A stretch of DNA of 64,000 nucleotides from an uncultured Gammaproteobacteria bacterium (lineage in GTDB: Bacteria; Patescibacteriota; Microgenomatia; Levybacterales; GWA1-39-11), in NCBI GenBank assembly GCA_964472415.1, contig CAYYLC010000003.1, positions 2,219 through 66,218 of the forward strand, in the 5' to 3' direction. The notes below the pieces were generated by a model, which saw nothing but the letters and a program-made list of their open reading frames with translations, was not told the origin of the DNA and made no database searches. Positions 1,409 to 43,464 of this stretch are shown here, piece by piece; within the stretch, counting starts at the first letter, position 1, and the number at the start of each line of letters is the position of its first letter. The position numbers and the translations under genes were made by a program.

Positions 1409-2488
1409 TCACAGTGTAAGCAAGAGCGCTCCGCCAATTATCAGGAGTAGAATTCCTCCTGTTATTACATAGGTCTGCATAGGTGAGCCAGGATTTGCAA
1501 TAGTTGGGGTAGGCGTGTTTGTTGCAGTCGTAGCAGCTGGCATGGTGGGGGTGAGCGTCGCAGTAATTTGAACATTGATGGGCGTTGCAGTCGGAAGTGT
1601 TCTGGTAGGGGTATTTGAAGGGATATTTGGTGTCGTTGACGGGGAGACGACTACTTCTATTGGGGTCGGCGTGGTTGGTATTGGGGTAGGCGTGTTTGTT
1701 GTGGTTGGTAGAAAACTTGTAGGAGTCGGGGTAAGTTGGGATGTTGGTGAGGGTGTAATAGTAGGTGTAGGAGTTACGGTGAAAGTAGGTAGCGGGGTAA
1801 TTGTGGGGGATAGAGTTATTGTAGGATCAATGGAGGGAGTGGGAGTCCGGGTAATTTCCGTATCTGGATCACTCCCAAAAGTTGTTGTCCAATACCACCA
1901 ACCATTTTGTCCTGGTATGCGTGCGATTCCGATAACTTGCTTGTCTGAGCTCCCCATATTCCGTCTGTGTCCTGGTGAGTTAAACCATGAGGTGAAAGCG
2001 CTTTGTGCGCTTGCGTATGAGTAGGTAATATTTTCTGCTATTGCACCACCCGTATAGCCAAATGCTTGGAATCGTTCTTCTATGTTCCTTCCAAGAGAAT
2101 CGACATGACTAAGTGATTGCCTTTGTGCCATATCATTTGATTGCCAGTCAGCGGCTTCTGTGAGTTTTTGCGATATTTTAAGAGGGGTTTTTAAGCCGAG
2201 ATCGTTTATGCGATATTCGTTAATAATATCTAAAAAATTCCATTCTTCACTATCAAGTTCGGCAGAAGACATTGGTAAAGATTCATCTGTGGAGAATGCG
2301 TTAAAATCTTGAGCTTGGGTAGGCGTAGGGGTAGATAGGGTTTCTGTGGAAGGAGTGTTGTCATTTTTGGAAAAATGAAAAAGAATAATGCTAACAATTC
2401 CAACGAGAATTATTATCCCGACAATAAGGAATTTTTTTTGGATTACTCCCATTAAATTATCATAGTACGAAATAAGGGCTTGCCACAA
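1409..2488 (-). CDS. membrane-anchored CAP/SCP (YkwD-like) domain protein with Thr/Pro-rich linker and C-terminal hydrophobic tail
   Basis: N-terminal TM helix. CAP-family signature FNSPGHRRNM. Long T/P-rich repeats (TPTPT...) followed by a C-terminal hydrophobic segment. Confidence 0.6.
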   Translation of the reverse strand: MWQALISYYDNLMGVIQKKFLIVGIIILVGIVSIILFHFSKNDNTPSTETLSTPTPTQAQDFNAFSTDESLPMSSAELDSEEWNFLDIINEYRINDLGLKTPLKISQKLTEAADWQSNDMAQRQSLSHVDSLGRNIEERFQAFGYTGGAIAENITYSYASAQSAFTSWFNSPGHRRNMGSSDKQVIGIARIPGQNGWWYWTTTFGSDPDTEITRTPTPSIDPTITLSPTITPLPTFTVTPTPTITPSPTSQLTPTPTSFLPTTTNTPTPIPTTPTPIEVVVSPSTTPNIPSNTPTRTLPTATPINVQITATLTPTMPAATTATNTPTPTIANPGSPMQTYVITGGILLLIIGGALLLTL

Positions 2489-3594: not shown

Positions 3595-4257
3595 TTACAG
3601 TGCTGGAAGAGGAGTAGCGGGCGAAGTTAGGGGAGGTTCCGTAGTGGTTATAGGTGCAGGTGAGGAAGCGGTCGGAAGCATAATCGTGAGTGGCTGAGCG
3701 GCTCTCAGAAGAGAGTTAGTGCTTTGTAGCGTTCGTACCGTTGTTTTCGGGAGCACAGTAATTTCAGTTGAGTTCAGTGCAGAATAGAGCGTATTAAATC
3801 TGAGCGTTGCAATGGTCCCTGCCCCGCTTACTTCTTCAGCATCAAGGCTCCCAAGCGCAATGATAAATGTTATACGCCCAAGATCTGGTTCTACGGAATT
3901 TACGAGAACTCCTGGATTTTCCCCAAAAAGATTATTCTCAGTCGGTGCTATGGATACGTTAGCGAGGACGGTTGGGTCATAAGAAAGTTGAAGTTCCACG
4001 CCGGAAATATTTTGACCATTCGTATCTACCATAACGTCCACTATATGCGCAGCTGTGGTTGCAGTAGAGGTGTCTATAGACGACGGTGAGAAGGAGATAT
4101 CAGTCTGCGGATTTATAGTGGGAATAATATCTTCCTCAGAAGCAGGCGCTTCAGTAATATCAGGTGGGCTTTGGTTTTCTGTTCGAATCGCGATATACAC
4201 GAGTCCCACGGTAAAAAGAAGTAGGATAACGATAAGAATAGTGGTTTTTTTGGGCAT
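3595..4257 (-). CDS. cohesin domain protein (signal-anchor, T/P-rich C-terminus)
   Basis: N-terminal TM helix. The cohesin hallmark LQLSYDPTVLANVSI and the GAGTIATLRF beta-strand pattern resemble clostridial cohesins. Confidence 0.55.
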   Translation of the reverse strand: MPKKTTILIVILLLFTVGLVYIAIRTENQSPPDITEAPASEEDIIPTINPQTDISFSPSSIDTSTATTAAHIVDVMVDTNGQNISGVELQLSYDPTVLANVSIAPTENNLFGENPGVLVNSVEPDLGRITFIIALGSLDAEEVSGAGTIATLRFNTLYSALNSTEITVLPKTTVRTLQSTNSLLRAAQPLTIMLPTASSPAPITTTEPPLTSPATPLPAL

Positions 4258-4306
4258 GGCTCCTTTATCTTCTTATAACTGAGTGATTATTGTCAAGTAA
4301 TTTGTG

Positions 4307-5824
4307 TTACCGCTGTGTTGCTCCTTGCCTATTAGCAAAACCTCTTTGCATTGCGGTAAGGTCAATGGTGTCAATTTTTCCATTTTCGTTCAAGTCTGCT
4401 CGAGTTTTTGCATCATCCGTACAAATCGCTTCATCTTTGTAGCATGCGATAAAAAGATTGTAATCTGCAAGATCGAGGATGTCATTGCTATTTCCAGTTC
4501 TGTCAATATCTCCGGAAATAAGAACTATCTGTGAGAGCTCTGTTGTGCTATTCGTTGTGATAAGTGGAAAGCCTGGGATTTCTGAGTAGAGTGTGTTATC
4601 AAGTCTCACCAGTACAAGATAATTTGCAGTAGGGAGACTTCCGAGATTAACAGTTCCTTTGTAGGTAAATGTGGTGGGATCAAACGTAAGTGTTCCTATT
4701 GCGGGGTTTTGATTTCCTGTTGCGAGATTCGTCACGTCTGTTCCGGTGGCAGATTCAACGCGCACTTCCACCTGGCGAGTAGTTCGCACGGGGTTTTCTG
4801 TATTATTCAGAGTGCCTGAGCCGGATGCTGCTGTATTTGATCCGATTCCCGGGAGTGCAAGGCTAAGAGAGATTCTTGTTCCACCGGCAGTTGTTGGCTG
4901 GCTTGTTACGGTCGGCATGGGGGTGCTGCTACTTTTTGGTTTTTGTGTTATAGAAGGAGCAGTTTTTGTTGGAATCGGGGTAGGAGTTGAGATAGGTGAT
5001 GATTGTATTGAAGTAGGTGTCGAGTTAATAGGTGGTTGTGTTGGGGTAGGAGTGGGTCTTTCCGGGCTTGTGCAGATACCATCTTCACATTTATTACTTG
5101 CACAGAGGTATGGGACGGGGATCCCTCCAAGCTTACAGGTGCATCCCCCAGGACGGTTTGCACTATTACTGCTACAGCTATTCCATCCTCCAGAAGGGGC
5201 AGTAGTGGGTGTAGGCAGTGGGTTGTCACTGAGAGTGCACAGTCCTGTTGCTGGATGGATCGAATACCTTGCGCCGCAACAGCCAAACCCTGCTGGAGGT
5301 TTTTCTCCCGCTCTCCCACATTGGTTTGTGTTTCCACCAGTGTCACCGTTATCTTTTTCTCCATTTTCTGAAGAGCCGCAAACAACTTCAGATGTGTACG
5401 ATGTGGAGGTTAGTTGTTTACCGCTTTTGTCGGTTGCTGAGACTTGAAATATATATATTGCTCCTTGCTCGAGTCCGTTTGCTGCATAGGAAGTTTGATC
5501 AATTGCTTGGATATTTATGTTTTTGATGGGATTTTGCCCTTCTTTAACATAGTGAACAGTTTGGATTGCAATAGCAGATCTTGGACTTGCTTGCGTCCAA
5601 CGTACTATGAGATTTCTGCAATTTGATCCTTCAGTGACGGATATGATTGAAGGAGGAGTAGTGATGCTTCCAGATGCAGCGCGTTGTCTCAGGTCTTGCT
5701 GTTGTTGGGTGAGTATTATGGTTATGGGAAGTGCAAGTGCGAGGATAAGTCCACCGATAACCATAGCTGTCCTTTGCCAGGAGTGGAAGAAAGCACCATC
5801 AATAAGGCTACGAATAGATCTCAT
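4307..5824 (-). CDS. secreted FN3-like, Cys-rich protein with C-terminal dockerin-like repeats
   Basis: Signal-anchor, an FN3-like segment, a Cys-rich block and a T/P-rich linker. The C-terminal GDIDRTGNSNDILDLADYNL...DLNENGKIDTIDLTAMQRGF matches duplicated dockerin Ca-binding repeats. Confidence 0.55.
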   Translation of the reverse strand: MRSIRSLIDGAFFHSWQRTAMVIGGLILALALPITIILTQQQQDLRQRAASGSITTPPSIISVTEGSNCRNLIVRWTQASPRSAIAIQTVHYVKEGQNPIKNINIQAIDQTSYAANGLEQGAIYIFQVSATDKSGKQLTSTSYTSEVVCGSSENGEKDNGDTGGNTNQCGRAGEKPPAGFGCCGARYSIHPATGLCTLSDNPLPTPTTAPSGGWNSCSSNSANRPGGCTCKLGGIPVPYLCASNKCEDGICTSPERPTPTPTQPPINSTPTSIQSSPISTPTPIPTKTAPSITQKPKSSSTPMPTVTSQPTTAGGTRISLSLALPGIGSNTAASGSGTLNNTENPVRTTRQVEVRVESATGTDVTNLATGNQNPAIGTLTFDPTTFTYKGTVNLGSLPTANYLVLVRLDNTLYSEIPGFPLITTNSTTELSQIVLISGDIDRTGNSNDILDLADYNLFIACYKDEAICTDDAKTRADLNENGKIDTIDLTAMQRGFANRQGATQR

Positions 5825-8309: not shown

Positions 8310-9635
8310 CTACGGGAGTCTAAATTTACTTGCAAATTTCTTTACTTCTCCCGAAATTCTTTCTAGTTCTTTATTATTATCAATATCGTCTTTGAATGCT
8401 TTGAAAAAGACCGTTCGCTTTTCTTGGGTCGTTGGAAGTCCCCATTCGCCACACGCAACAATCGTTTCATTAATCCATTTCGCGATTTTTTTCATGTCAG
8501 CCTCATTCATGCCTCGGGTTGTGATAGCAGGAGTTCCAATACGAATTCCTGAAGGATAAAATGGTGGATTTGTGTCATTTGGAACTGAGTTTTTATTTAC
8601 AATAATATTTGTCCTTTCAAGTGCGTATGCAGCAAGTGCGCCGTTTATTTTTTTGTTTTGGAGATTGACAAGCATAAGGTGATTGTCAGTGCCGCCACTT
8701 ACGATATCAAATTCGTAATTTGTTAGTTCTTTACTGAGAGTTTTTGCATTTTTGACTATTTGCTTTGCATACGATTTAAATTCTTCAGTACTAGCCTCCT
8801 GAAGTGCTACGGCAATAGCTGCAGTTTGGTCATCATGGGGGCCACCTTGGAGTCCAGGGAATACTGCTTTATCGATTTTTTCAGCAAGTTTTGGGTCTTT
8901 GGAAAGGCCTCTTTTGGTGACCATTATTATCGCACCTCGGGGTCCGCGGAGAGTCTTGTGTGTTGTTGTCATGATGATATCTGCGTATCGTGCTGGAGAT
9001 GGATGTGCGCCACCTGCGATGAGTCCTGCGATATGAGAAATATCTGCTACGAGATATGATTTATTTTTATTAGCAATTTCTGCAAATTCTTCAAATGGTA
9101 GCGTCCTAGAATAGGCTGTTGCTCCAATAAAGATAAGGGTTGGTTTGTGTTTTTTTGCAAGCGTTTTTACTTCTTTTATATCAATTCGTCCGGTTGCATC
9201 TACGTGGTATTGAATACCATTATAAAACTGGCCTGTCACGCTCGCTTTCCATCCATGAGTGAGATGTCCACCATCAGGAAGTGCATGGCCGAGAACAGTA
9301 TCTCCTAGTTTGCAAAGAGCGACGTAAATCGCAAGATTTGCAGGGCTTCCGGAGTAGGGCTGAACGTTCACATGTTCAACTTTAAACAACTTTTTAGCAC
9401 GTTCTATCGCAAGAATTTCAGCACTATCTATGAATTTATTTCCTTGATAGTATCGTTTTTTCGGATAGCCTTCAGAGTATTTGTTTGTTAGAGCTGATCC
9501 GAGCGCAGCGCGAACTGCAGTGGAGGCATAATTTTCTGATGGGATGAGCGTAATGGTTTCTTTTTGGCGTTTTTCTTCTTGGTGAATTATTTCATCTATC
9601 TGAGGATCTATTGAGGAAAGTTTTTGTATGCTCAT
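8310..9635 (-). CDS. glyA: serine hydroxymethyltransferase
   Basis: Motifs LIPSENY, VQPYSGSPANLAIY and the PLP-lysine region TTTHKTLRGPRG. Confidence 0.9.
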   Translation of the reverse strand: MSIQKLSSIDPQIDEIIHQEEKRQKETITLIPSENYASTAVRAALGSALTNKYSEGYPKKRYYQGNKFIDSAEILAIERAKKLFKVEHVNVQPYSGSPANLAIYVALCKLGDTVLGHALPDGGHLTHGWKASVTGQFYNGIQYHVDATGRIDIKEVKTLAKKHKPTLIFIGATAYSRTLPFEEFAEIANKNKSYLVADISHIAGLIAGGAHPSPARYADIIMTTTHKTLRGPRGAIIMVTKRGLSKDPKLAEKIDKAVFPGLQGGPHDDQTAAIAVALQEASTEEFKSYAKQIVKNAKTLSKELTNYEFDIVSGGTDNHLMLVNLQNKKINGALAAYALERTNIIVNKNSVPNDTNPPFYPSGIRIGTPAITTRGMNEADMKKIAKWINETIVACGEWGLPTTQEKRTVFFKAFKDDIDNNKELERISGEVKKFASKFRLP

Positions 9636-9700: not shown

Positions 9701-10378
9701 TTATTGGAGAAGTTGATTTTGTTGATTGAGTCTTTCTTGCGCATCTGGTGCAAGAAGAGGAGAACTTGGTGCAAGAATTACGTCTAGATTTACAAATCCT
9801 ACAGCAAGCACTTTCCCATCGGCTTCATTTATAGTTGTTTCATCAGAAATAGTAATTGATGTGGTGTTGCTCGTATCGGGATGAGGAGTGAATCGTATAT
9901 CTGCTATTTTTCCCTCGCCGCTTATAACATTATCGCTTCCAATGACTACTTCAAGGTATCCTTTATTTTGATCCTCATTGATGATAAATACTTTTGTTTG
10001 GGGACCGAAAAGTGGCTGGTCGGCAGCTGGTTCTACAGATATATTTCGGATAAGAGTAGGGTTGTATTTGAGAGCGAGGCGGACGCTTTTTATATAGTTG
10101 CCCTTTACATTCATAAATAGTGCAGCTATTTGCTGCCCCACTATTTTTGAATTTGCAAGATCTATGATAGGAGGGTCAAAATATAACTCTGCGTCATATG
10201 ACGTTTCCTGCGCTGTTTTTTGAGGAGTTTTGTCTTCAGATGGGGACTCATTATTTTTTGAAAAAAATGCAAATATCAAGATAACAGTAATGATTAGGCT
10301 TAGGATCGTAATTCCTATAATGATTAGTGTCCTTCTATTTTTTAGTATTTCAATAGTCATAATAGCTAATTTCTGCAT
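9701..10378 (-). CDS. cohesin-like secreted protein (signal-anchor)
   Basis: N-terminal TM helix. LALKYNPTLIRNISVEP and GEGKIADIRFTP parallel the cohesin core of the 3595..4257 protein. Confidence 0.45.
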   Translation of the reverse strand: MQKLAIMTIEILKNRRTLIIIGITILSLIITVILIFAFFSKNNESPSEDKTPQKTAQETSYDAELYFDPPIIDLANSKIVGQQIAALFMNVKGNYIKSVRLALKYNPTLIRNISVEPAADQPLFGPQTKVFIINEDQNKGYLEVVIGSDNVISGEGKIADIRFTPHPDTSNTTSITISDETTINEADGKVLAVGFVNLDVILAPSSPLLAPDAQERLNQQNQLLQ

Positions 10379-12123
10379 TCACCGTATCTACTTGAAAATG
10401 GTTTTCTACAAAAACTTCCAAACTTCCCATCTTTGGTATTTCTACAGCTGATGTTATCCTCACAACATTTTGAGTCAGCACTTCTGACGCAGGCAACAGA
10501 GCACTCAGCCTTAGGATCTGTTGGATTTACGACTGTGCAGCGTGAAGGGTCATTTGTTCCACCTTGGGGCATTTTTGTGGGAGAGAGTTGATCCGTAATG
10601 GTTGGATTTGTACTTGAGCTTGGAGGATTACAGGTTTGAAATCCTGCGTTATTGATACAGACAGAACCAGTATTACAACATGGGGCGCTTCCGTAGCATG
10701 CATTGCCATCCGCTACGCATGATGGTTGAGAGGTTGCTGTTGAGTATGAGATTGATTGATAGTTATTCTCTTCATTTGTCTCACGAATTGATTCAGAAGA
10801 GTCAGCCCATGCGATCATGGTGAAAGACCCTATCTCATCTGGTGCTGAGACAATAGGAGGACTATTGAGCGAAACGTTTTTTCTTACTTCTTCGTTCTGT
10901 GAAAGATTTACGCTAAATGTCTGATTTTTTGTGGCGCATTGGGATGGGTCTCCGGGACATTGTGATTTGATCCCAGACACAGATCCATTCCTGAAAATTG
11001 ATACCGTGATATTGCCTTTATACGCATCTCCATTATTTTTAATAACCACAGTTGCAGTCATAGATTCTTTCGGGCTGTATGTGCTTTTATTTATTTCGAT
11101 TCTTGGGAGTTGGATGTCATAATTTGCTGATGGTGCAGGGGTAGGATTAGGGGCTGATACATCAGGACAGCGATAGAAGTATTGGGTGATTGCAGAGCCA
11201 GTCGTGACATCACAATACGGATCGGCGCCGCTTGAGTCATAGTCGTATCGAGCTACCCATTGAGCATTTTCTTTTGCACATGTAGGATTTCCGACAGGTG
11301 TCATAGTGGAAAGAGTCGGCGCAGCGTCTCCACAATATCCCACACCAGGAACTGGAGGGATTGTGGGTTGAGCAGGTGCAGAGTTGTCTGGTGGTATTGG
11401 CTGTTGTGGGGGCGCTGTGTCACCGCTGTTTCCATCACCACTATTGTCTGGAGCAATAAGTTGACAGCAGGTAAGACCGACTTGGCAGCTCGAATTTCTC
11501 CCTGAATATGATACTCTACCTGCTGAACAGGAGGTTTGGCATTCGTATTCTCTTTCTCCTCCCCTCAGGCTATTTCCTATATTGACACAAGTGTTTGCGG
11601 TGGGTGGGAGGGGGACTACTGGGGGATCAGCCGGAGGAGGCGTGGAGTCTTGAGAAGCATAACAGCATGTTAATCCAGTCCCGCAAGTAAAGGATGATGC
11701 GGTATGTCCAGCTGGGCATAAGTTGCCTGGATAACAGGTATATGAGTAATTGCCCACAGGACAGTTATTAACAGGTGCTGGTGCTTTCGTGGGGGCCGGC
11801 GGGTCAGGAATATATGGAGGAAAGTTTGGGATATCGCCACCTGGGTCGTGGGCACATATGCCATCTATGCAGATCCCAAGCTCACAGTCATCAGCTTTAT
11901 CTCCATTACCATTTAGGTCTTCACAGCTGTACCCAACTCTCTTTTTGCATTCATCTTTTACGCACGTTTTTACGCCTCTACAGTAGATTCCGCAGACATT
12001 ATTTTGAGTAGTAGATTGTTGTGCAGAAGCGGTGTCTGTAGAGAGAGTTATAATCCCGAAAAAAATCAAAGCAAGAAGAACGATAATATTTTTACACCAC
12101 GTAACTTCAGATAATGACTTCAC
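10366..12123 (-). CDS. large secreted cysteine-rich protein (putative adhesin)
   Basis: Signal peptide and more than 50 Cys in repeated Cys-rich modules. A CARDB-like beta segment ATVVIKNNGDAYKGNITV. Pro-rich linkers. Confidence 0.5.
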   Translation of the reverse strand: MKSLSEVTWCKNIIVLLALIFFGIITLSTDTASAQQSTTQNNVCGIYCRGVKTCVKDECKKRVGYSCEDLNGNGDKADDCELGICIDGICAHDPGGDIPNFPPYIPDPPAPTKAPAPVNNCPVGNYSYTCYPGNLCPAGHTASSFTCGTGLTCCYASQDSTPPPADPPVVPLPPTANTCVNIGNSLRGGEREYECQTSCSAGRVSYSGRNSSCQVGLTCCQLIAPDNSGDGNSGDTAPPQQPIPPDNSAPAQPTIPPVPGVGYCGDAAPTLSTMTPVGNPTCAKENAQWVARYDYDSSGADPYCDVTTGSAITQYFYRCPDVSAPNPTPAPSANYDIQLPRIEINKSTYSPKESMTATVVIKNNGDAYKGNITVSIFRNGSVSGIKSQCPGDPSQCATKNQTFSVNLSQNEEVRKNVSLNSPPIVSAPDEIGSFTMIAWADSSESIRETNEENNYQSISYSTATSQPSCVADGNACYGSAPCCNTGSVCINNAGFQTCNPPSSSTNPTITDQLSPTKMPQGGTNDPSRCTVVNPTDPKAECSVACVRSADSKCCEDNISCRNTKDGKFGSFCRKPFSSRYGECRN

Positions 12124-18302: not shown

Positions 18303-18593
18303 CTATTTTTCTTCGGTAGGGTTGTTTTGAGTATTCTCTCCAGTGGAATTTAACAATCCTGAGACTTGCTGTTGGGGGAAGCTTTCAGCTTGTTGTGATG
18401 AGTTTTCTGGATGGAAAGGAGGGTTTGCACTGTTGTCTTCTGGGATTTGCGGTTGGATTGGAGGAATTTCCGTAGGGATTATTTGCTTGAGTCTTTGCTC
18501 TTCTTTTCTTTTGTTAAATATATCGCGCCCTTCTGAAATTTCTTCCATAGGTATACAGATTACAGGAATCGTGCAAGATGTGTCAAGGAACAT
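18303..18593 (-). CDS. small acidic Pro/Gln-rich hypothetical protein
   Basis: ORF only. It is the last gene of a minus-strand run with the CofE-like gene. Low-complexity composition. Confidence 0.25.
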   Translation of the reverse strand: MFLDTSCTIPVICIPMEEISEGRDIFNKRKEEQRLKQIIPTEIPPIQPQIPEDNSANPPFHPENSSQQAESFPQQQVSGLLNSTGENTQNNPTEEK

Positions 18594-18608
18594 ACTGATC
18601 TAGTCTTT

Positions 18609-19361
18609 TTAAGAATTGGACTTTTCTCCTTTTTTCCAGGGGGCAAGTTTGAGTAATGATGAATAAAGATCTGTGTCAATATCAATTTTTAGATGGTCGA
18701 GTTCCTCCTCAGTAGGGTTTCTTTCTTGGAATTGTACATTCTCAGTATCAGTAACGAGTGCTAAAGGAGTTTGTTCACGTCCTTCTCCCATTACACAAAC
18801 TGCAGCCGCAGCAATTCCATCCATGATATTTGATTCGGTAACGCGCATGGTTTTATCGAACAAATCTGATTTCCCAATATACGTGTTGAGTGCTTTAAAT
18901 CCGGAATGTGCTATTGCAACGCCGGTAGTTCCCCAGCGAAGTGGGGAAGTTTTACTGTCAGTGATAATAATGCCGATATGCTTTTTATTATATTTTTTTG
19001 TTAGATGTTCACGGATATCATTTGCGGTTTTTTGTGGATTTTTCGGCCAGAGAATATAATACCCATTTCCATTGCTTTCATCAATTCCAGCGGTTGGGAT
19101 TAGAAGATTTTGCGTTATTGTGAGACTAAACCCATACTTGTTCTCGCTTTTTTCTAAAAAATATTCTGATTCTTGTTTGATTAGCTCATCTTTATCTGCC
19201 TTTTCGGTCTGGATAATTCGCCCCTCGCAAATGGAAATAATTTTTGATGTGATGCAGAGAATTGATCGCTCCTCTAATGTGTCAATATAGCTATCGATAA
19301 CATCGAGAATATTAGTATCCTTATCTGTTATTTTACGGGTTTTAACTGCTACTATTTTCAT
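18609..19361 (-). CDS. F420-0:gamma-glutamyl ligase (CofE)-like amidoligase family protein
   Basis: CofE family motifs ILCITSKIISICEGR, PTAGIDESNGNGYY, GIIITDSKTSPLRWG and MGEGREQTPLALV. These correspond to CSTVISKAEGR, NAGIDASN, GVIITDTNGR and GEG. Confidence 0.6.
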   Translation of the reverse strand: MKIVAVKTRKITDKDTNILDVIDSYIDTLEERSILCITSKIISICEGRIIQTEKADKDELIKQESEYFLEKSENKYGFSLTITQNLLIPTAGIDESNGNGYYILWPKNPQKTANDIREHLTKKYNKKHIGIIITDSKTSPLRWGTTGVAIAHSGFKALNTYIGKSDLFDKTMRVTESNIMDGIAAAAVCVMGEGREQTPLALVTDTENVQFQERNPTEEELDHLKIDIDTDLYSSLLKLAPWKKGEKSNS

Positions 19362-19497
19362 GTTTCAGATACATTTTTGGTTTTAAAACTTTCTTCCCAA
19401 TATTTTGCAGCAAGATCCTGATATGGAATAGGGAGTGCATGTTTTGTATTATAATGTACCGGTAAAAAATTGTCACTTTTTCCCGATCTGTACAGTT

Positions 19498-20280
19498 TCA
19501 GAGATTTATTTCGAGAAGTTCTATATTAGACCATGACAGTACTTTTTTTAACTCATGAATTGTGGAATTATTTTCATCATTTTTTTTATTTATCAATACT
19601 GATTTTCGAAAGAACCCTTCATTATCCGGTTCTGTAAAAAAGAATACCGGAGTTTTTTCTGCCATATCATCTGGAGTTTTTATCAATATATCATGTTTTC
19701 GAGTGGAGACTTTCGGTTTGCCTCCGAGCTTGAGCTTAAACAATTGAAGACCGATTCTATTGATTTCAGGTCGATGATGATCAGTGCCGTGATTCATTTT
19801 TTGGTAGCCTTCATTTTGAAAAGATTTGATGAGGAGGTATTCTGCCCAAAAATCTAATGTCGTTTCAAATTTATATTTTTTATTTATTTCTCTGTCAAAA
19901 ACTCTCAATGAGATCTTTGCAAGTTCTTTATCTTTTAAATATAAAGTTCCTCCTATAAATCTATTTGTTGTTTTTTCAAATACTGAAAGATGATGATAAT
20001 TATATCCTTTTTCGAGTCGCTGTATGATTTGTTCATATTTCGCTTTTGTATTTAATATGTAATCTTTTCGTTGTCCAATCACTTTTTCGTAGAGTGGAAA
20101 AAATGTATTTGAGAAAAAATCTTTTGTAGTTTTTTCTTGTTTATACAAGAAAATATTATTAAAATCTTTTTCACTTTTTTTAATTCTCTTTACGAGTGAT
20201 GGGTAGAAGATGTCCTCCCAGGGTCTGTTAATAGCAATATACCAAGTGGTAAGCGTATGCATGGATAAGCTCGTGCTCAT
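19498..20280 (-). CDS. hypothetical protein (operon partner of CofE-like gene)
   Basis: The ORF overlaps the upstream gene by 4 nt (translational coupling). No confident motif. It could be an acyl/aminoacyl-transferase fold, but this is unsupported. Confidence 0.4.
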   Translation of the reverse strand: MSTSLSMHTLTTWYIAINRPWEDIFYPSLVKRIKKSEKDFNNIFLYKQEKTTKDFFSNTFFPLYEKVIGQRKDYILNTKAKYEQIIQRLEKGYNYHHLSVFEKTTNRFIGGTLYLKDKELAKISLRVFDREINKKYKFETTLDFWAEYLLIKSFQNEGYQKMNHGTDHHRPEINRIGLQLFKLKLGGKPKVSTRKHDILIKTPDDMAEKTPVFFFTEPDNEGFFRKSVLINKKNDENNSTIHELKKVLSWSNIELLEINL

Positions 20281-21422
20281 TGTAGCGGGTTGCTGAAATC
20301 CGGAATTAGAATTGGTTTCTTATCAATCAAATTATACTTCATGAGGAGTTTTGTTGTATGAGGATTTTTAGCATAGTACATTAGTTCTTCAGGATTATCT
20401 CTCAGAAAGTCGAGTACTGCCTTATATCCTAGAAGATATGCTGCATCTTTTGGATAGCCTCCTGGCTTACTGGTGTCATGCATTCCTCGTTTAACACGAA
20501 ATGTTATATTAAAGGCTTGTTTTTTTGATAGTTTATCACTGAGAAGCATAACGTAAATTTGTCGAAAACTGAGATGAGAATTTTTGATAGCTTTTAAGCG
20601 ATAATAATAATTGGTGAGTGCACTTTTTGTTATTGTATTTGTTTTAACTTCATTGAATACACCCAGTCCTTCAGAGTATAGATTTGAGTCAGAGAGTTTT
20701 GATAGTGCCGTTAGAGAATTTGTTGCATTTCGCATATTGTAATTTTGGAGTGTGTGACTTTCTATTTCATGCACGATAAGTCTATTTGTATTATTTTGGA
20801 ATCGCTTAATATTTTTTCCGATATTAATTTGTTTCGAATTTACAAAAATAATGTTGCTCGTAAAATCATTTACCTCTACAGGAATATTGTGAATTTTATA
20901 TTTGTCTACTAAAGCTTTTTTAAGCTGTTTCGCAATTTCTTCGGCATTGGTCATGTTGCCGGTATGTTCATTATTGAATTCGAATTTGGGAAGTTTTTTT
21001 AAAAGCTCATCGGGATCATGGATATCCCAATCAAAAGCAAGTTTTGCATAGCATGGAAACGTGGGTTTTCCAATAGATCGTCTTGCATGATAGAGAAATC
21101 TGAGATGGTTTACATAATCAATAAGATGACGCATTAAGTCATATGGAAGATTTTCTATATTTTCTATTTGCTGTTCGAGTTCATCTATTTCTGTTTCAAA
21201 TTGGTTTGGGAGAAGATTAAGGTAAGAAAATTTTGGATTATACGTTCTACTATTGAGAAACTTCTCTTTTTCCGGCAAGAAATTTAGTGGAGTGAGGGCT
21301 GTAGATTCTAGTATGAGAGAGGTGCGTATCCGTGCGCCGTGTTTTGCGATTTGGAAAAGTTTTTGTTTATCTGTTTGTGAGATAGAGCGTGTATACATAG
21401 TAGTCACATTGTACCAAACCAT
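20277..21422 (-). CDS. HExxH zincin-like protein (resembles DUF1704/QEGLA-motif family)
   Basis: VHEIESH (HExxH) followed by YSEGLG, resembling the QEGLA motif of the DUF1704 zincin-like family. Family assignment is from memory only. Confidence 0.4.
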   Translation of the reverse strand: MVWYNVTTMYTRSISQTDKQKLFQIAKHGARIRTSLILESTALTPLNFLPEKEKFLNSRTYNPKFSYLNLLPNQFETEIDELEQQIENIENLPYDLMRHLIDYVNHLRFLYHARRSIGKPTFPCYAKLAFDWDIHDPDELLKKLPKFEFNNEHTGNMTNAEEIAKQLKKALVDKYKIHNIPVEVNDFTSNIIFVNSKQINIGKNIKRFQNNTNRLIVHEIESHTLQNYNMRNATNSLTALSKLSDSNLYSEGLGVFNEVKTNTITKSALTNYYYRLKAIKNSHLSFRQIYVMLLSDKLSKKQAFNITFRVKRGMHDTSKPGGYPKDAAYLLGYKAVLDFLRDNPEELMYYAKNPHTTKLLMKYNLIDKKPILIPDFSNPLQ

Positions 21423-21455: not shown

Positions 21456-22310
21456 ATGAATAAAAAAATTACTGTAGTATCTGTTCTGATTCTTGTGATA
21501 GTGGGGGTGGTGATTTGCATATTATTAAATTTGGAAACGGTTCGAGCACTTTCTCAAAAATCTGTAGAGATTGTAGAGGGGGCTATTGGGATGCGAGTGA
21601 ATACTTCTGGACCTTTAAGAAAGGAAGGTGATGATGCGGGATCAAATCTTACTGTGCAGGGAGTAATCAGAGAGACAAATCGTCGCAGGGTAGAGGCAGG
21701 TCTTCCTCTGCTTTCTGAGAATGTGTTGTTGGATCTTTCTGCTCAGAGAAAGGTTGATGATATGTTTAAGAGGCAATATTTTGAACATGATGCACCGACT
21801 GGAGAAAGCGCGGGAGATTTGGTAGTAGATGCGGGGTATGAATTTATAACAGTAGGTGAAAATCTTGCATTGGGAAATTATCAGAATGATATGATTCTTG
21901 TCCAAGCATGGATGGATAGTCCAGGACACAGGGAGAATATTTTGAAAAATTCCTATACAGAGATTGGAGTTGCGGTAGCGCGTGGGATGTTCGAGGGAAA
22001 AGAAACATGGCTTGCGGTGCAGCATTTTGCAAAGCCATTATCTGATTGTCCTGCAATTAATGCTAATCTTAAGTCTCAAATCGACTCTCATAATTCTAAA
22101 ATTGAGAGTATGAAATCTGATTTGGAACGCCGTAAGATTTATCTCTCAGAAAAACCTATAACTCAGGAGGAAGCAAGTGATTACAATAGGCAGGTCGATG
22201 AATTTAATGCGCTCGTAAATGAATATAATGCATTACTTTCTGAGACGCGAGATTTTGTTTCTCAATATAACTCACAAATACAGGATTTTAATAGTTGTGC
22301 AAAAGAATAG
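21456..22310 (+). CDS. membrane-anchored CAP/SCP (YkwD-like) domain protein with C-terminal coiled coil
   Basis: N-terminal TM helix. CAP signature WMDSPGHRENIL...EIGVAV. A coiled-coil tail. Confidence 0.65.
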   Translation: MNKKITVVSVLILVIVGVVICILLNLETVRALSQKSVEIVEGAIGMRVNTSGPLRKEGDDAGSNLTVQGVIRETNRRRVEAGLPLLSENVLLDLSAQRKVDDMFKRQYFEHDAPTGESAGDLVVDAGYEFITVGENLALGNYQNDMILVQAWMDSPGHRENILKNSYTEIGVAVARGMFEGKETWLAVQHFAKPLSDCPAINANLKSQIDSHNSKIESMKSDLERRKIYLSEKPITQEEASDYNRQVDEFNALVNEYNALLSETRDFVSQYNSQIQDFNSCAKE

Positions 22311-22389: not shown

Positions 22390-22752
22390 ATGGATAATAA
22401 TCAAAATCAAGGAGGACAGCCAGGGATGCCAGGAAATGATGCGCCGACAGCTCCAACAGGAGATGTGAATCCTACTCCTGCGATGCCGGGAGCAGGGATG
22501 CCAGGAAGTGAGGTCCCAACCCCTCCAGTGGCGGAGAATCCAGATCCTAGCATGCCACCAACTCCTCCAGCAGGAGATGTTCCACAACCGGGAACAGGCA
22601 TGCCAACTCCTCCAGCACCGGAAGTACCAGCTCAGCCAGAAATGCCTCAGCCGGAAGTTCCTACACCAGGAAGTGATGCGCCAACAGCTCCAACAGGAGA
22701 AGCTCCACAACCGGGAGCAGGTGTGCCAGGAGATAGCCCTTTGCAGGGTTAA
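22390..22752 (+). CDS. small proline-rich repetitive protein
   Basis: Strong RBS GGAGGTGAAG 8 nt upstream. Internal repeats (G[NS]DAPTAPTG[DE], MPxPxVP). Followed by a strong intrinsic terminator. Confidence 0.5.
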   Translation: MDNNQNQGGQPGMPGNDAPTAPTGDVNPTPAMPGAGMPGSEVPTPPVAENPDPSMPPTPPAGDVPQPGTGMPTPPAPEVPAQPEMPQPEVPTPGSDAPTAPTGEAPQPGAGVPGDSPLQG

Positions 22753-34197: not shown

Positions 34198-34917
34198 ATG
34201 GATAGATTGGTATTTTTAGATACAGAAACTACTGGGAACGACGTTTATTTTGATCGTCTTTTTGAGGTAGCTTATAAATTTCGAGAAAAAACATACTCTG
34301 GATATTTCAAACCTCCAATTCCGATCTCTGTAAAATCATCAAGCATTACTCATGTGACAAATGAGATGGTAGAAGGCAAAATTCCTTTCATGGAATCCCA
34401 AATGAGAACAGATTTAATGGAGATTTTGAAGGATAATATTCTTGTTGCACACAGTGCTGCATTTGATATCGAAGCGCTCGCGAAGGAGGATGTGAAGGTC
34501 TCAAATTTTATCTGTACGTTGAAAGTTGCGCGATATCTTGATACAGAATCTGAAATTCCAGAATACGGATTACAGTATTTGCGGTATTTCCACAATCTCA
34601 ATGTCACAGACGCGGGAGCGCATGACGCAAGAAGCGATATAAAAGTTTTGGAGGCAGTATTTAATTTTCTCTTCAATAAAATGAAAGAAAGCGGAAAATC
34701 AGAGGAAGAGATTTTAGATGAGATGATGAGAGTGTCGCAGCAGCCAGTACTTTTTAAGTTTTTTCCATTTGGAAAACACAGAGGAAAAAAACTTGAAGAA
34801 ATCGCAGTCTTTGATAAAGGATATCTTGAGTGGATGCTTGATCAAAAACTGCAAAGCAATAAATCTGAAGAGGATTGGATCTTTACGTTGAAATATTATT
34901 TGCAGATAAACGATTAG
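34198..34917 (+). CDS. DEDDh 3'-5' exonuclease (DnaQ-like) fused to DUF3820-like C-terminal domain
   Basis: Exo I FLDTETTG, Exo II AHSAAFD, Exo III HDARSD. The C-terminal FGKHRGKKLEEI...YLEWM resembles DUF3820. Confidence 0.7.
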   Translation: MDRLVFLDTETTGNDVYFDRLFEVAYKFREKTYSGYFKPPIPISVKSSSITHVTNEMVEGKIPFMESQMRTDLMEILKDNILVAHSAAFDIEALAKEDVKVSNFICTLKVARYLDTESEIPEYGLQYLRYFHNLNVTDAGAHDARSDIKVLEAVFNFLFNKMKESGKSEEEILDEMMRVSQQPVLFKFFPFGKHRGKKLEEIAVFDKGYLEWMLDQKLQSNKSEEDWIFTLKYYLQIND

Positions 34918-36001
34918 AAAGCTTGTTCCTCAGAAGATCGAGAAGTGCCATTTCTTCCCATGATAATCCTGAAATATCAACCTTCTTGTCTCTGTATTCT
35001 CCGAAATACGGAATAAGAGAATTTGTCTCATACGATTTAAAAATAGCAGGGTGGATATAGTAGCTTTTACATACCGCGACCGTATTTCCGAGATACTCTG
35101 AAACAGTCCTGCATGTTTGAGAAAGCGCTTTTTTGAGGTGGGTTTTATTTCTGTACGGACCGATTTTATAGAGATGCGTTGAGGCGATATTACTTCCGCC
35201 CCATGTGCGAAAGTCTTTTGCCGAGAAATCATCATGCGCAATTTCTTTCAAAAAATCATTAACATCCTGAGAATCGATCGCGTGTTTTTTTCCATGATCA
35301 TCGATATATTGGAATAGTTCATATCCCGGGAGTTCAATACATTTTTTGATAATTCTACTAACAGTTGGATGTGTTATTTCGAGCTGGTGTTCGACTCCAG
35401 ACTTGCCGCGGAAGTGGAATCGTACATCATTTCCCCGTATTTGTACGTGCTTATCTCTGAGCGTAGTGAGTCCATAGGAATTATTTTCTCGAGAATATTC
35501 TTCATTTCCAATTCGAATAAATGTGTGCTCAAGGAGCCAGACGATAGTTGCAAGTATCTTTCGTTTATCCATTCCGGAAAGCTTGAGGTCATAGCTAATT
35601 CTTCTCCGAATTTTAGGGAGCGCTAAAGCAAAATCAGTCATCTTTGAAAATTTATTTTCTTGCGCAAGCTTTTTCCAGTCTTCGTGATAAATATATTGCT
35701 TTCGCTTCTTTTCATCGAATCCTGTTACCTGGAGGTGTGTGTTTGCAAGAGGCGATATCCATACCTTTTGCCATGCCGGAGGGATAGTAAGATGTTTAAT
35801 TCTATCGAGTTCCGCTTTTTCCGTTATTTTTCTTCCTTGAGAATCATAGTAAGAAAATTTATCATCTAATTTCTGTCGGAAAAATCCTGGGACTGTATCG
35901 CGAATATAGCGGAGTGATTCCTTTTTGAGGCTTTGCTCAATTTGAGGACTCAGTATATTCATGGAGTAATTAAGCTTACCGAAAAATTGGAAACAGTACA
36001 A
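34883..36001 (-). CDS. type IB DNA topoisomerase (poxvirus/bacterial TopIB type)
   Basis: RIGNEEY, FRGKSG, TWGG and the tyrosine-containing AVCKSYYIHP correspond to the Arg/Lys/Arg/His/Tyr catalytic pentad regions of TopIB. The true start may be the internal Met at about 35962. Confidence 0.7.
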   Translation of the reverse strand: MYCFQFFGKLNYSMNILSPQIEQSLKKESLRYIRDTVPGFFRQKLDDKFSYYDSQGRKITEKAELDRIKHLTIPPAWQKVWISPLANTHLQVTGFDEKKRKQYIYHEDWKKLAQENKFSKMTDFALALPKIRRRISYDLKLSGMDKRKILATIVWLLEHTFIRIGNEEYSRENNSYGLTTLRDKHVQIRGNDVRFHFRGKSGVEHQLEITHPTVSRIIKKCIELPGYELFQYIDDHGKKHAIDSQDVNDFLKEIAHDDFSAKDFRTWGGSNIASTHLYKIGPYRNKTHLKKALSQTCRTVSEYLGNTVAVCKSYYIHPAIFKSYETNSLIPYFGEYRDKKVDISGLSWEEMALLDLLRNKLSNRLSANNIST

Positions 36002-37228: not shown

Positions 37229-38275
37229 ATGAAGAAGTTAATTCTTATAATAATTATCGCGTTGGTAGCCATTGCTGCTTTTGTATATCGGTGGCAGATG
37301 GATAATTTGACTACCGGTGTTCAGGAGTTTGCAGATAAGAATATTTCAGAAAGGATTGCTGATTTTCATCCGTTATCTATAGAATCGCTTAGGCGAGGAG
37401 AATATTTAGGGAGTGATATAGAAATAGAACAGGTTTTGCCTTCTGGTAGTAATTACTCCCGTTACATCACATCCTACAGTTCTGAGGGCCTCAAGATATA
37501 TGCTCTTTTGACGGTTCCCAACGGAAACGCGCCAGAAGGAGGTTTTCCTGTCGTTGTCTTTAATCACGGATATATCCCTCCTGCAGAATACGAAACTACT
37601 GAAAGATATATTGCGTATACAGATGGTTTTTCTAGAAATGGTTATGTGGTTTTCAGGTCAGACTATAGAGGTCATGGTAATTCTGAGGGTAGGGCAGAGG
37701 GCGGTTATGGAAGCAATGCGTATACGATAGATATACTCAATGCAGTAGCGAGTGTTAAAAAACTTGAATATATAAATCCAGAAAAAATTGGAATGTGGGG
37801 ACACAGTATGGGAGGTCATATAACGCTGCGTAACATGGTGGTAAATAAAGACGTCAAGGCCGGGGTTATATGGGCAGGAGTAGTCGTTTCCTATCCTGAC
37901 CTTCTGGAAAGATGGAGAAGGGGGAGTGTCAATTCGACTGGTACGCCGTCGCCATTTCCGACCAGATCGAATAGAGGAGGATGGAGAAATGGATTTATAG
38001 AGATATTTGGGAGTCCCGCAGATAATCCTACATTTTGGAGTTCCATTTCTTCAAATTCCTATCTAGGTGACATTTCGGGTCCTGTGCAGCTTCATCACGG
38101 AACGGCTGACTCATCTGTACCATTTGAATTCTCTGAAAAACTTTCTGAGCAGCTGGAGGCGGAGGGTAAAGAGGTTGAGCTATATATATACGAAGGCGAT
38201 GACCATAATTTGTCCGGGAATTTTTCGATTGCGATGCAGCGCTCTATAGAGTTTTTTGATAGATACCTCAAATAA
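37229..38275 (+). CDS. signal-anchored alpha/beta hydrolase (S9/dienelactone-hydrolase-like)
   Basis: Nucleophile elbow GHSMGGH and a catalytic His near the C-terminus (DDHN). Paralog of 42349..43464. Confidence 0.7.
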   Translation: MKKLILIIIIALVAIAAFVYRWQMDNLTTGVQEFADKNISERIADFHPLSIESLRRGEYLGSDIEIEQVLPSGSNYSRYITSYSSEGLKIYALLTVPNGNAPEGGFPVVVFNHGYIPPAEYETTERYIAYTDGFSRNGYVVFRSDYRGHGNSEGRAEGGYGSNAYTIDILNAVASVKKLEYINPEKIGMWGHSMGGHITLRNMVVNKDVKAGVIWAGVVVSYPDLLERWRRGSVNSTGTPSPFPTRSNRGGWRNGFIEIFGSPADNPTFWSSISSNSYLGDISGPVQLHHGTADSSVPFEFSEKLSEQLEAEGKEVELYIYEGDDHNLSGNFSIAMQRSIEFFDRYLK

Positions 38276-42348: not shown

Positions 42349-43464
42349 ATGGAAGATCAGGAAGACTTGAATCCATCTCATTACCATAGTATGCCACAGG
42401 CGAAACATAGCCTTTCGAAAGTATTCGGAGGAGTTGTTGTAGTCATTTTTATGATTGTTACTTGTGTAGCGGGATATTTTTTAGTGCAAAGAGGTAGTAT
42501 TGCACCATCTCCTATAATAGAGGATAATTCCTCTATTCAGACTCAGCTTGAAAATTCTGAGCCATTTTTATTTCAAGATATGACTATTCCGTATTTACGA
42601 GAGAAGGCGTATGAAGGTGCGCTGACGAGTTTGGAAGAAGTTTCCTCAAATTCTGACTATATGTCATATCGTACTACATATATTTCGGATGGTCTAACGA
42701 TTTATGCACAAATCACGAAACCTGCAAATGCAATGCCAGAAGGTGGATTTCCGGCAATTATATTTGTTCATGGATATATTCCTCCTGCTCGTTATCAGAC
42801 TTTTTCAAATTACGCCTCATATGTAGATGCACTTGCGAGAAGTGGTTTTGTGGTTTTCAAGATAGATCTTCGCGGGCATGGAGAATCTGAAGGAGAGCCG
42901 AGTGGGGCATACTATTCAGGAGATTATGTTGTGGATATTCTCAATGCGCGCGCAGCGCTGAGAGTTACTGAATTTGTAAATCCTGAAAAAATCGGATTGT
43001 GGGGACACAGTATGGCGGGGAATGTCGGACTCAGAAGTTTCGTGGTAGCACGTGATATGCCGGCAATATCTCTTTGGAGTGGTGCAGTATATACATATGA
43101 AGATTTGGGAAAGTATGGCATTAGTGATGCGAGCTATCAACCACCTGATATGAATTCTGAGAGACAAAAGAGGCGTGAGATGCTTAGGGAAATGTATGGA
43201 GAGTTTGATAAAAATAGTGAATTTTGGAGCCAGGTAGTACCTATAAATTATCTCGATGATGTTCGTGGAGCAATTCAGCTGAATCACGCAGTGGATGATG
43301 ATGTTGTAAATAGCGGCTACAGTAGAGATTTGAATATATTACTTGATAATACTGATATTGTGCATGAGTTCAACGAATATTCATCTGGTGGACATAATCT
43401 CAGCGGGAGTACATTTACTCGTGCCATGAATGACACAATAAAGTTTTTTCATGAGCATTTGTAG
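42349..43464 (+). CDS. signal-anchored alpha/beta hydrolase (paralog of 37229..38275)
   Basis: GHSMAGN nucleophile elbow. Roughly half of residues identical to the 37229 paralog over the catalytic domain. Confidence 0.7.
   Translation: MEDQEDLNPSHYHSMPQAKHSLSKVFGGVVVVIFMIVTCVAGYFLVQRGSIAPSPIIEDNSSIQTQLENSEPFLFQDMTIPYLREKAYEGALTSLEEVSSNSDYMSYRTTYISDGLTIYAQITKPANAMPEGGFPAIIFVHGYIPPARYQTFSNYASYVDALARSGFVVFKIDLRGHGESEGEPSGAYYSGDYVVDILNARAALRVTEFVNPEKIGLWGHSMAGNVGLRSFVVARDMPAISLWSGAVYTYEDLGKYGISDASYQPPDMNSERQKRREMLREMYGEFDKNSEFWSQVVPINYLDDVRGAIQLNHAVDDDVVNSGYSRDLNILLDNTDIVHEFNEYSSGGHNLSGSTFTRAMNDTIKFFHEHL

Follow-up and report, generated by a model that had tools for sequence, protein, structure and literature searches.

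Within a 64,000-nucleotide stretch of contig CAYYLC010000003.1 (assembly GCA_964472415.1), referred to here as the window, four genes run head-to-tail on the minus strand, and the question they raise is which of their products act together, and upon what. In the direction of transcription they encode a putative zinc metallopeptidase (M), a 260-residue protein (G), a homologue of the F420-0:gamma-glutamyl ligase CofE (C), and a small acidic protein. An initial annotation, made from the sequence letters, had proposed that C and M form a pair which adds and removes glutamate or amino-acid tails on a substrate other than F420, possibly the small protein itself. The arrangement it described, including the 4-nt overlap of the M and G genes, is confirmed by the open reading frame (ORF) listing of the window, and the gene order is identical on independent ENA, Logan and JGI assemblies. 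What survives of the proposal is that a bacterial MATCAP homologue keeps company with peptide-bond-forming enzymes; the CofE-like ligase as its specific partner is not supported, and the Fem-like protein G takes that place instead. We put at about an even chance the reading that M and G constitute a cytoplasmic peptide-editing pair derived from ligase-peptidase systems of the Rlo/RimK type, with C a separate FolC2-like ligase.

The peptidase M and its partner G

The M gene (20277..21422, minus strand) encodes a 381-residue homologue of the MATCAP/DUF1704 family of gluzincin metallocarboxypeptidases, the start of which may be Met9. Its product matches Pfam PF08014 over residues 69-343 (8.1e-29; 101.1 bits against a cutoff of 27), which bears out the DUF1704 family named in the initial annotation. 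The zinc motif that had been read as HExxH is in fact HEIESH (H218-E219-I-E-S-H223) and thus HExxxH; the second motif, YSEGLG, is present as described and contains E251, a candidate for the third metal ligand. HExxxH is a hallmark of the MATCAP/TMCP family (PMC10499314). Residues H218, E219, H223, E251 and G252 are invariant among 35 relatives of M, and HExxxH is found in 49 of 51 full-length relatives. A profile of the 35 relatives reaches human MATCAP (KIAA0895L, 7z5g) with an E of 1.6e-17, in an alignment which pairs HEIESH with HEIGTH, EGLA with EGLA, and RVKRG..DTS.PGG.PKDAAYL.G of M with RAKRG..DTS.PGC.SKDQVYL.G of the human enzyme. Human MATCAP (7z5g/7z6s) is also the sole strong Foldseek match (E 1.3e-8, TM 0.54-0.64) of the AlphaFold2 (AF2) model of M (pLDDT 93.2, pTM 0.91). 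On these alignments and the predicted structure, M is shown to have the MATCAP fold and an intact HExxxH...E site. Its score against TIGR02421, the QEGLA equivalog associated with modulation of flavohemoglobin expression, lies far below the cutoff (94.7 bits against 338.65), and M is for this reason placed in a separate subfamily of the superfamily. No signal peptide is evident in the M protein. MATCAP itself was recognised as a tubulin detyrosinase only in 2022. In three of the loci that carry a MATCAP-like gene (L040, L041 and L043; ~5990-9910 in L040), this gene is accompanied by one for a 467-aa protein without a Pfam match, and a second MATCAP paralogue of 452 aa (PF08014, 2e-29) lies on the opposite strand.

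The G gene (19498..20280, minus strand) was called an unknown in the initial annotation, which stands in so far as neither G nor any of 10 diverse relatives has a Pfam or NCBIfam match (a lone faint match to ATE_C, E 0.07, was seen in one relative), and gives way in so far as its predicted structure belongs to the GNAT superfold and is Fem-like. By Pfam, G belongs to none of FemAB, DUF2156, ATE and Leu_Phe_trans. The family is rare: a word-indexed search gave 7 matches, and a search of 1.84 billion proteins gave 188 representatives at E<=1e-3; its members are all ~250 aa long. With the AF2 model of G (pLDDT 90.2, pTM 0.88) as query, Foldseek returned Sbb17/Sba18 at 2.6e-7, followed by FemX, L-PGS/MprF, ATE1 and L/F-transferase (LFT), and by two methods the best structural matches are aminoacyl-tRNA-dependent transferases of GNAT fold, the peptidoglycan enzymes FemX and FemA among them. 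The most conserved motif of the family, G177-L-x-L-F181-K182, contains an aromatic-lysine dyad; K182 is invariant in 80 diverse members, 76 of which have the full motif, and in the AF2 model it sits on the helix following the central strand. A catalytic lysine with a preceding aromatic residue is found in FemX (F304-K305), ATE1 (Y303-K304) and DhpH-C (F328-K329), the K304A variant of ATE1 is inactive, and the key catalytic lysine of L-PGS is K813 (PMC9351520, PMC12945691).

On its model, G is a GNAT-superfold protein closest to the aminoacyl-tRNA-dependent transferases FemX, Sbb17, MprF and ATE1, and may be described as Fem-like in fold, in a separate family of ~255-aa proteins and not a member of any Fem family. 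With FemXAB, Sbb17/Sba18/Orf11, MprF/PGS, ATE1 and L/F-transferase it shares the predicted fold, and its F181-K182 resembles the aromatic-lysine dyads of FemX, ATE1 and DhpH-C, whereas there is no detectable sequence similarity to these enzymes, G has ~255 residues against the 330-400 of a double GNAT, and the structural agreement is at a TM of ~0.5. Neither a GNAT toxin-antitoxin component nor a plain acetyl-CoA acetyltransferase is favoured for G, as its top structural matches are Fem-type; the conserved GRxGLxLFK region furthermore contains no Q/RxxGxG/A CoA-loop motif, and no antitoxin-like gene adjoins G, the constant partners of which are the peptidase and ATP-grasp ligases.

The association of M with G was followed through ~70 related loci (48 metagenome loci obtained via the M alignment, 2 genome loci via G, and the rest by exact look-up), which were scanned with hidden Markov models (HMMs) of M, G and C and drawn as gene maps with flanks labelled by the genes of the window. 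In the window, L006, L007, L014, L016, L022 and others, the M and G genes have 1-4 nt between them or overlap, and the pair recurs in different flanks (L033/L047, L044, L036). Where M has diverged to 29% identity (L049/50), the operon consists of M, an ATP-grasp gene and G, the genes overlapping. A G member at ~20% identity (P0200, in L068/69) lies in the order ATP-grasp, G, MATCAP, with unrelated flanks and a different strand arrangement; a second very distant member, P0160 (L071), likewise at ~20%, is convergent to MATCAP, ATPgrasp_ST and 7TM_transglut genes; and another, P0260 (L070), is convergent to an ATP-grasp gene of RimK/GSH-S type. Among the seven lineages ascertained through G, M is adjacent in six, and either M or an ATP-grasp gene is adjacent in every one. 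A Peptidase_M23 gene adjoins G in L070.

The ATP-grasp genes that accompany the pair are of several kinds. They lie beside M, G or both in L018, L033, L049/50, L068/69, L070 and L071, and the MATCAP neighbours in relatives include RimK-like, ATPgrasp_ST, D-Ala-D-Ala-ligase-like and glutathione-synthetase-like genes. The order in L033 is 7TM_transglut (PF14402), then ATPgrasp_ST (PF14397; TIGR02291, 254 bits) fused to a retropepsin-like, RloA3-like domain (PF05618), then M, then G. This locus is the predicted DUF1704/ATP-grasp/7TM-transglutaminase trio with G in addition. 7TM_transglut occurs again in L071. In L018, a close relative of the window locus (M 64%, recR 81%), a RimK-family ligase (TIGR00768, 94 bits) takes the slot of G, and in L065 a distant M is paired with a glutathione-synthetase-type ATP-grasp gene. 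The window locus itself contains neither an ATP-grasp ligase nor a 7TM inactive transglutaminase. The loci thus show that M and G remain a conserved unit even where sequences have diverged deeply and flanks have been rearranged, an ATP-grasp ligase being their usual companion.

A proposed editing pair and its known relatives

It is reasonable to postulate that M and G, a translationally overlapping pair, are a pared-down cytoplasmic form of the bacterial ligase/peptidase systems that act on peptide tails. In such a scheme G would form an amide bond, placing an amino acid (the donor of which would probably be an aminoacyl-tRNA) onto the amine of a peptide or peptide-like substrate; M would trim this substrate, probably at an acidic tail, by cutting off C-terminal residues in alpha linkage; and together the two may set the length or the end-state of the peptide. 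The chemistry of such a pair is not that of simple opposites, as an enzyme of Fem type acylates an amine whereas trimming by a carboxypeptidase takes place at the carboxyl end, and this weighs against the proposal in its plainest form. A substrate shared by the two would therefore have to be a peptide open to attack at either end, and M and G are better seen as each working at its own end of a single peptide than as exact opposites. Several further observations tell against the pairing. Roughly half of the M loci lack G, and as such M does not need G; G has no sequence match in the PDB; its assignment rests on a predicted fold at a TM of ~0.5 and a short motif whose structural match to K305 of FemX is putative; and we know of no biochemical study of the bacterial MATCAP relatives or of G. 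Our literature searches, in which Plasmodium gene IDs crowded the results for the DUF1704 family, turned up no account of a GNAT/Fem-like partner for the bacterial homologues of MATCAP.

The nearest precedent is a trio of DUF1704 (QEGLA), ATP-grasp and 7TM inactive transglutaminase genes, which Iyer et al. reportedly predicted in 2009 to be an amidoligase-peptidase system. The peptidase of that trio belongs to the same family as M (PF08014), the logic of a ligase and a peptidase on one peptide is the same, and the full trio, with its ATP-grasp (TIGR02291, PF14397) and 7TM (PF14402) members, stands beside G in the relatives L033 and L071. The window differs in that the ATP-grasp and 7TM genes are missing and M scores below the cutoff of TIGR02421, and the Fem-like G, a constant partner here, is not part of the trio as described. 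A second precedent, in this case with genetic support, is given by RloABC of P. aeruginosa and by RimK-RimB, in which an ATP-grasp ligase is opposed by a peptidase: the mutant that lacks the rloA1-3 peptidases is rescued when rloB or rloC is deleted, and the glutamates that RimK adds to RpsF are trimmed off by RimB (PMC12239564). L033 again supplies the likeness, with an RloC-like ATP-grasp domain fused to an RloA-like retropepsin and an RloB-like 7TM gene just upstream of M-G. The peptidases of RloABC and RimK-RimB are retropepsin-like aspartic enzymes, unlike the gluzincin M, and no GNAT component is found there; RloA is secreted, whereas M is without a signal peptide, and the substrate of RimK is RpsF. 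By analogy, the window locus would work like an Rlo/RimK-type system without being a canonical member. The tubulin cycle, in which TTL/TTLL ligases are set against MATCAP/TMCP (KIAA0895L/KIAA0895), offers a third comparison, as M is homologous to the latter, with the same motifs and fold, and there too a ligase adds residues to an acidic tail that a MATCAP enzyme trims. Identity is only ~20%, there is no tubulin and no microtubule-binding extension here, and the partner is GNAT/Fem-like (or an ATP-grasp enzyme in relatives) where tubulin has an ATP-grasp of TTL type. The M-G-type locus is, in sum, a variant of known, largely predicted, ligase-peptidase systems and a canonical member of none.

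The Fem-like structure of G and the ATP-grasp genes also bear on a different reading, in which the locus edits cell-wall precursors: G would act like FemX, transferring a side-chain amino acid from aminoacyl-tRNA to the peptidoglycan stem peptide, M would be a cytoplasmic carboxypeptidase of that stem peptide, and the ATP-grasp enzyme would be Ddl/Asl-like. ATP-grasp (Asl) and Fem enzymes are known analogues of one another in side-chain addition. This reading would account for FemX and FemA being among the best structural matches of G, for the ATP-grasp partners in L049 and L068, which match D-Ala-D-Ala-ligase models, and for the Peptidase_M23 gene of L070, and it would sit well with the cell-shape, ampicillin and hypo-osmotic phenotypes of P. 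aeruginosa Rlo mutants (PMC12239564). However, the loci examined contain no mur, fem or pbp genes, G is a single protein of ~255 aa and the FemABX enzymes are double GNATs of 330-400 aa, equally good matches of G (Sbb17, MprF, ATE1 and LFT) act on substrates outside the wall, and MATCAP-family enzymes are known only on protein tails. We consider cell-wall editing unlikely.

The interest of the locus and its relatives lies in several directions. In bacteria of the candidate phyla radiation the MATCAP-type peptidase has a constant partner, and this partner is an unannotated family, outside Pfam and NCBIfam, for which a name is needed. The same family joins ATP-grasp systems of Rlo/RimK type, which in Pseudomonas affect stress tolerance, antibiotic resistance and cell shape (PMC12239564). 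The two-gene locus is a compact version of a ligase-peptidase system, suited to reconstitution, and offers a concrete connection, open to test, of tRNA-dependent peptide-bond formation with trimming at the C-terminus.

The CofE-like gene beside the pair

The C gene (18609..19361, minus strand) encodes a 250-residue homologue of the CofE-fold gamma-glutamyl ligases, of the TIGR04132 (FolC2-like) type. The F420_ligase assignment of the initial annotation is upheld by a match to PF01996 at 6e-40, over profile positions 5-217 of 218, and C aligns with CofE of A. fulgidus at 1e-18, with AGIDESN/AGIDASN, ITDS/ITDT and GEG aligned; both are consistent with C being an intact ligase. Its best family is TIGR04132 ('putative folate metabolism gamma-glutamate ligase'), to which the alignment is full-length (residues 1-244 on 1-241 of 241) with a score of 282.6 bits, below the cutoff of 350, and C is treated on this basis as TIGR04132-like and not as a member of the family. 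Relatives of C at 63-65% identity are named as TIGR04132-type at JGI. The models of true CofE give lower scores, again below their cutoffs (TIGR01916, 128.7 bits against 180.65; NF009809, 125.5 against 274). An ordinary cofE in an F420 pathway is rejected, as the CofE equivalog cutoffs are missed and the annotated window parts contain no cof genes; the earlier remark that nothing else suggests F420 biosynthesis is sound, as the annotated portions of the 64-kb window and of the flanking contig stretches contain neither cofC/D/G/H nor any other F420 gene.

A CofE homologue of Chlamydia, CT611 (FolC2), complements a folC mutant of E. coli (PMC1971073). C resembles FolC2/TIGR04132 in that it has the CofE fold, in an organism without a sign of F420, and in having SHMT nearby; it differs in scoring below the cutoff, in not clustering with fol genes and in its position beside M-G. 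The SHMT gene of the window (8310-9635) lies ~9 kb from C, another is nearby in L014, and no fol gene is adjacent. C is most likely a separate gamma-glutamyl ligase of FolC2 type for a folate-like cofactor, probably with a housekeeping role. A likely mis-annotation is thereby corrected: genes named coenzyme F420-0:L-glutamate ligase in Patescibacteria appear closer to the folate-type FolC2 family, and the organisms that carry them have SHMT and no sign of an F420 pathway.

The distribution of C is not that of M. Homologues of C number >4200, the top ones from Levybacteria/Patescibacteria, as against 61 for M, and in the Levybacteria loci L008-L013 a C 58-60% identical to that of the window stands alone in unrelated neighbourhoods. 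Among the close C clusters on contigs >=10 kb, 5 of 31 (~16%) share a contig with an M match, as judged by matching 'longest contig' values between the C and M homologue listings, and the closest relative of C (P0011, 71%, on a 232-kb contig) has no M match on its contig. C is absent from L036, L044, L049/50 and L068-71, and M occurs without C in L024, L032, L035, L036, L038, L042, L044 and L068-71. Where the flanks are readable, M-C adjacency falls in the block CAP...recR-frr-rseP(-tsf-rpsB), in which recR-frr-rseP is kept as deeply as C (L017, L036); in L014/15/26 a gene on the opposite strand stands between G and C. C most likely stands beside M-G by virtue of a syntenic block specific to the Levybacteria-type lineage, and, where flanks are readable, its linkage to DUF1704 genes extends only as far as this block. 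Genes for alpha/beta-hydrolases (Peptidase_S9/dienelactone-hydrolase-like) directly follow stand-alone C-like genes (L011-L013, 6764-7864) and also lie directly upstream of stand-alone MATCAP-like genes (L032, L038, L042, L047); two further genes of the kind are found in the window, at 37229-38275 and 42349-43464.

The separateness of C is nonetheless opposed by four sets of observations. M and C are direct same-strand neighbours in four loci without G (L019, L028, L030, L046), with gaps of 7-190 nt (13 nt in L028 and 7 nt in L030), and the other flank of L030 is a 23S-IVP gene and not recR. In L017 the genes for G and C share 4 nt. The subtype of C co-varies, regardless of species distance, with whether G is present: the C sequences of the G-less M-C loci (L019, L046, L028, L030), at 66-80% mutual identity, form a subtype of their own against those of the window, L006, L014, L016 and L022. 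L019 is a species-level peer of the window clade (recR 79%, CAP 64%, M 62%). Its C nevertheless has just 53% identity to that of the window, as against 66-70% to those of L028/L030, two loci in which M is itself no more than 41% identical to the window M. This pattern, drawn from about three independent lineages, could reflect recombinational replacement between syntenic loci or a real coupling of C to the module. Last, C is missing from all three lineages (L049/50, L068/69, L071) in which ATP-grasp and G occur together and the flanks can be read, and loci without ATP-grasp mostly carry C, so that it could be a substitute ligase in Levybacteria-type loci. The contig of L017 (CAZBEA010000019.1), titled 'uncultured Gammaproteobacteria', has the Levybacteria-type order of MATCAP, 260-aa gene, CofE-like gene and recR, and is probably mis-binned.

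These observations (the absence of C where ATP-grasp accompanies M-G, the four G-less M-C loci, and the subtype of C tracking architecture) are the grounds for a reading which we also hold unlikely, namely that the CofE-fold C was recruited as the ATP/GTP-dependent ligase of the module in Levybacteria-type loci, replacing an ancestral ATP-grasp and glutamylating a peptide or protein tail. The tail would possibly be on the adjacent disordered protein ending in ..EEK.AA, and G and M would edit it. If this were true, it would provide the first substrate of the CofE family that is not a cofactor, and a bacterial 'tail code' of three enzymes drawn from three unrelated ligase/peptidase folds.

A rather unlikely variant keeps C on a cofactor and brings M and G to it, as a three-enzyme pathway in which a folate-like cofactor would receive a gamma-glutamyl tail from C and an alpha-linked cap from G or, in other lineages, from an ATP-grasp enzyme, and M would remove the cap. 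In F420 biosynthesis CofE is accompanied by the RimK-family capping enzyme CofF, MptN acts on tetrahydromethanopterin, and alpha-linked folate glutamates are known. In favour of this pathway, L018 combines M, a RimK-family ligase and C, and the L018 ligase also matches the NCBIfam models of MptN (59 bits against a cutoff of 350) and LysX below threshold; in its favour are also the recurrence of the M-G-C trio, with the G/C overlap of L017, the tracking of the presence of G or RimK by the subtype of C, and the SHMT gene of the window, which indicates that folate is used. But a Fem-type transferase would find no free amine to acylate on a gamma-polyglutamate tail, C is missing from the deeply diverged loci with M, G and ATP-grasp, most occurrences of C are without M or G, and the 7TM transglutaminase-like membrane protein of the canonical relatives does not suggest cofactor metabolism. 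In the preferred reading, with M-G an editing pair and C apart, C would act on a folate-like cofactor and may be co-transcribed with M-G while having no substrate in common with them.

The proposal of the initial annotation, a C ligase and M peptidase that add and remove tails, has to be weighed together with the small protein it took as a possible target. The gene (18303..18548, minus strand, in an ORF reaching 18593) probably starts at Met16, as called in L003, to give 81 aa. As had been described, the protein is acidic and rich in Pro and Gln (P 12%, Q 10%, E 12%), and it is likewise rich in Glu, Asn, Ser and Thr, and disordered; it has no family match in Pfam, NCBIfam, PADLOC or PHROGs. 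A positional orthologue is present in every C-recR interval, and the 8 orthologues compared share the N-terminus ME.SEG, motifs of the type N(I/V)SQFP, and a C-terminus ..EEK.AA or ..PDKP.A. The window gene ends (18303-18311) in GAA GAA AAA TAG GCA ACC TAG, or EEK*AT*, where the orthologues end in EEK(S/P/A)AA*, so that its in-frame TAG lies three codons ahead of the ancestral stop. The conserved acidic ..EEK.AA end would suit a substrate of the C-M pair, which is further favoured by the same-strand adjacency of C and M in ~12 lineages, four of them without G, by the lack of F420 genes in the annotated window parts, and by a type II C subtype common to M-C loci across species. Nevertheless, C is far commoner than M and stands alone in close relatives, M accompanies, on the same contig, only ~16% of the close C orthologues that lie on long contigs, and M occurs without C in many loci. 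The distribution of the small protein follows the C-recR interval and not M or G; it is absent from M/G loci that lack C, which does not support it as a substrate of M or G, and recR is as conserved a neighbour as C. The characterised MATCAP/TMCP enzymes, furthermore, shorten alpha-linked C-terminal glutamate chains and spare the gamma-linked branch glutamate (PMC10499314), so that M would be a poor chemical fit for undoing the work of a gamma-glutamyl ligase. We regard a C-M pair as distinctly improbable.

Very improbable, finally, is the reading that M, G, C and the small gene are unrelated and share a compact genome only, for although Patescibacterial genomes are dense, unrelated co-directional genes with short gaps are common (rseP-frr here) and the local block is syntenic as a whole, M-G adjacency survives replacement of the flanks, strand inversion and divergence to ~20% identity, and the repeated joining of M-G by the same third class of partner, ATP-grasp, finds no explanation in chance synteny.

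Transcription, flanks and other genes of the window

In the window a 136-nt spacer (19362-19497) separates the C gene from G, and inside it lies GTGACA-17-TATAAT (19448..19476, minus strand; a consensus match only, 11/12), the top promoter-like match of the 3.8-kb region. This site is a possible separate promoter for C, although promoter-like sites in the region (17 counted against 14.1 expected from shuffles) are near expectation. No minus-strand terminator was found in the G-C spacer of the window, and read-through from M-G into C is therefore possible. The G-C junction in relatives is a 40-51-nt spacer or a 4-nt overlap, and in some lineages C is therefore likely co-transcribed with G.

The flanks of the four genes are housekeeping genes, with rpsB, tsf, rseP, frr and recR on one side and CAP, FKBP and rhodanese on the other. 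A phage origin or a role in anti-phage defence is ruled out by these flanks and by PADLOC and PHROGs, in which none of the four proteins has a match. The best matches of the locus genes come from Candidatus Levybacteria/Patescibacteria, and a genome labelled by GTDB as Candidatus Levyibacteriota (L016) carries the same gene order. CAP-domain (PF00188) genes occur twice in the window, at 21456-22310 (plus strand) and 1409-2488 (minus strand); one of them is divergent from M at a distance of 33 nt, a position kept in all close relatives. The gene at 22390-22752 (plus strand), which lies between those for CAP and FKBP, encodes a low-complexity, Pro-rich protein of 120 aa, with a conserved positional orthologue in L014, L019, L023 and L026; this is a second small disordered protein flanking the cassette.

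Two observations concern more remote parts of the window. Two similar tandem pairs, each a CARDB-like/fn3-like protein followed by a Cohesin-domain protein, are encoded on the minus strand at 9701-12123 and 3595-5824, with CARDB-like/fn3-like members of 585 and 505 aa and Cohesin-domain members of 225 and 220 aa. A bacterial type IB topoisomerase (PF01028, 1.5e-39, with Top1B_N_bact) is encoded at 34883-36001 (minus strand) in this Patescibacterial genome.

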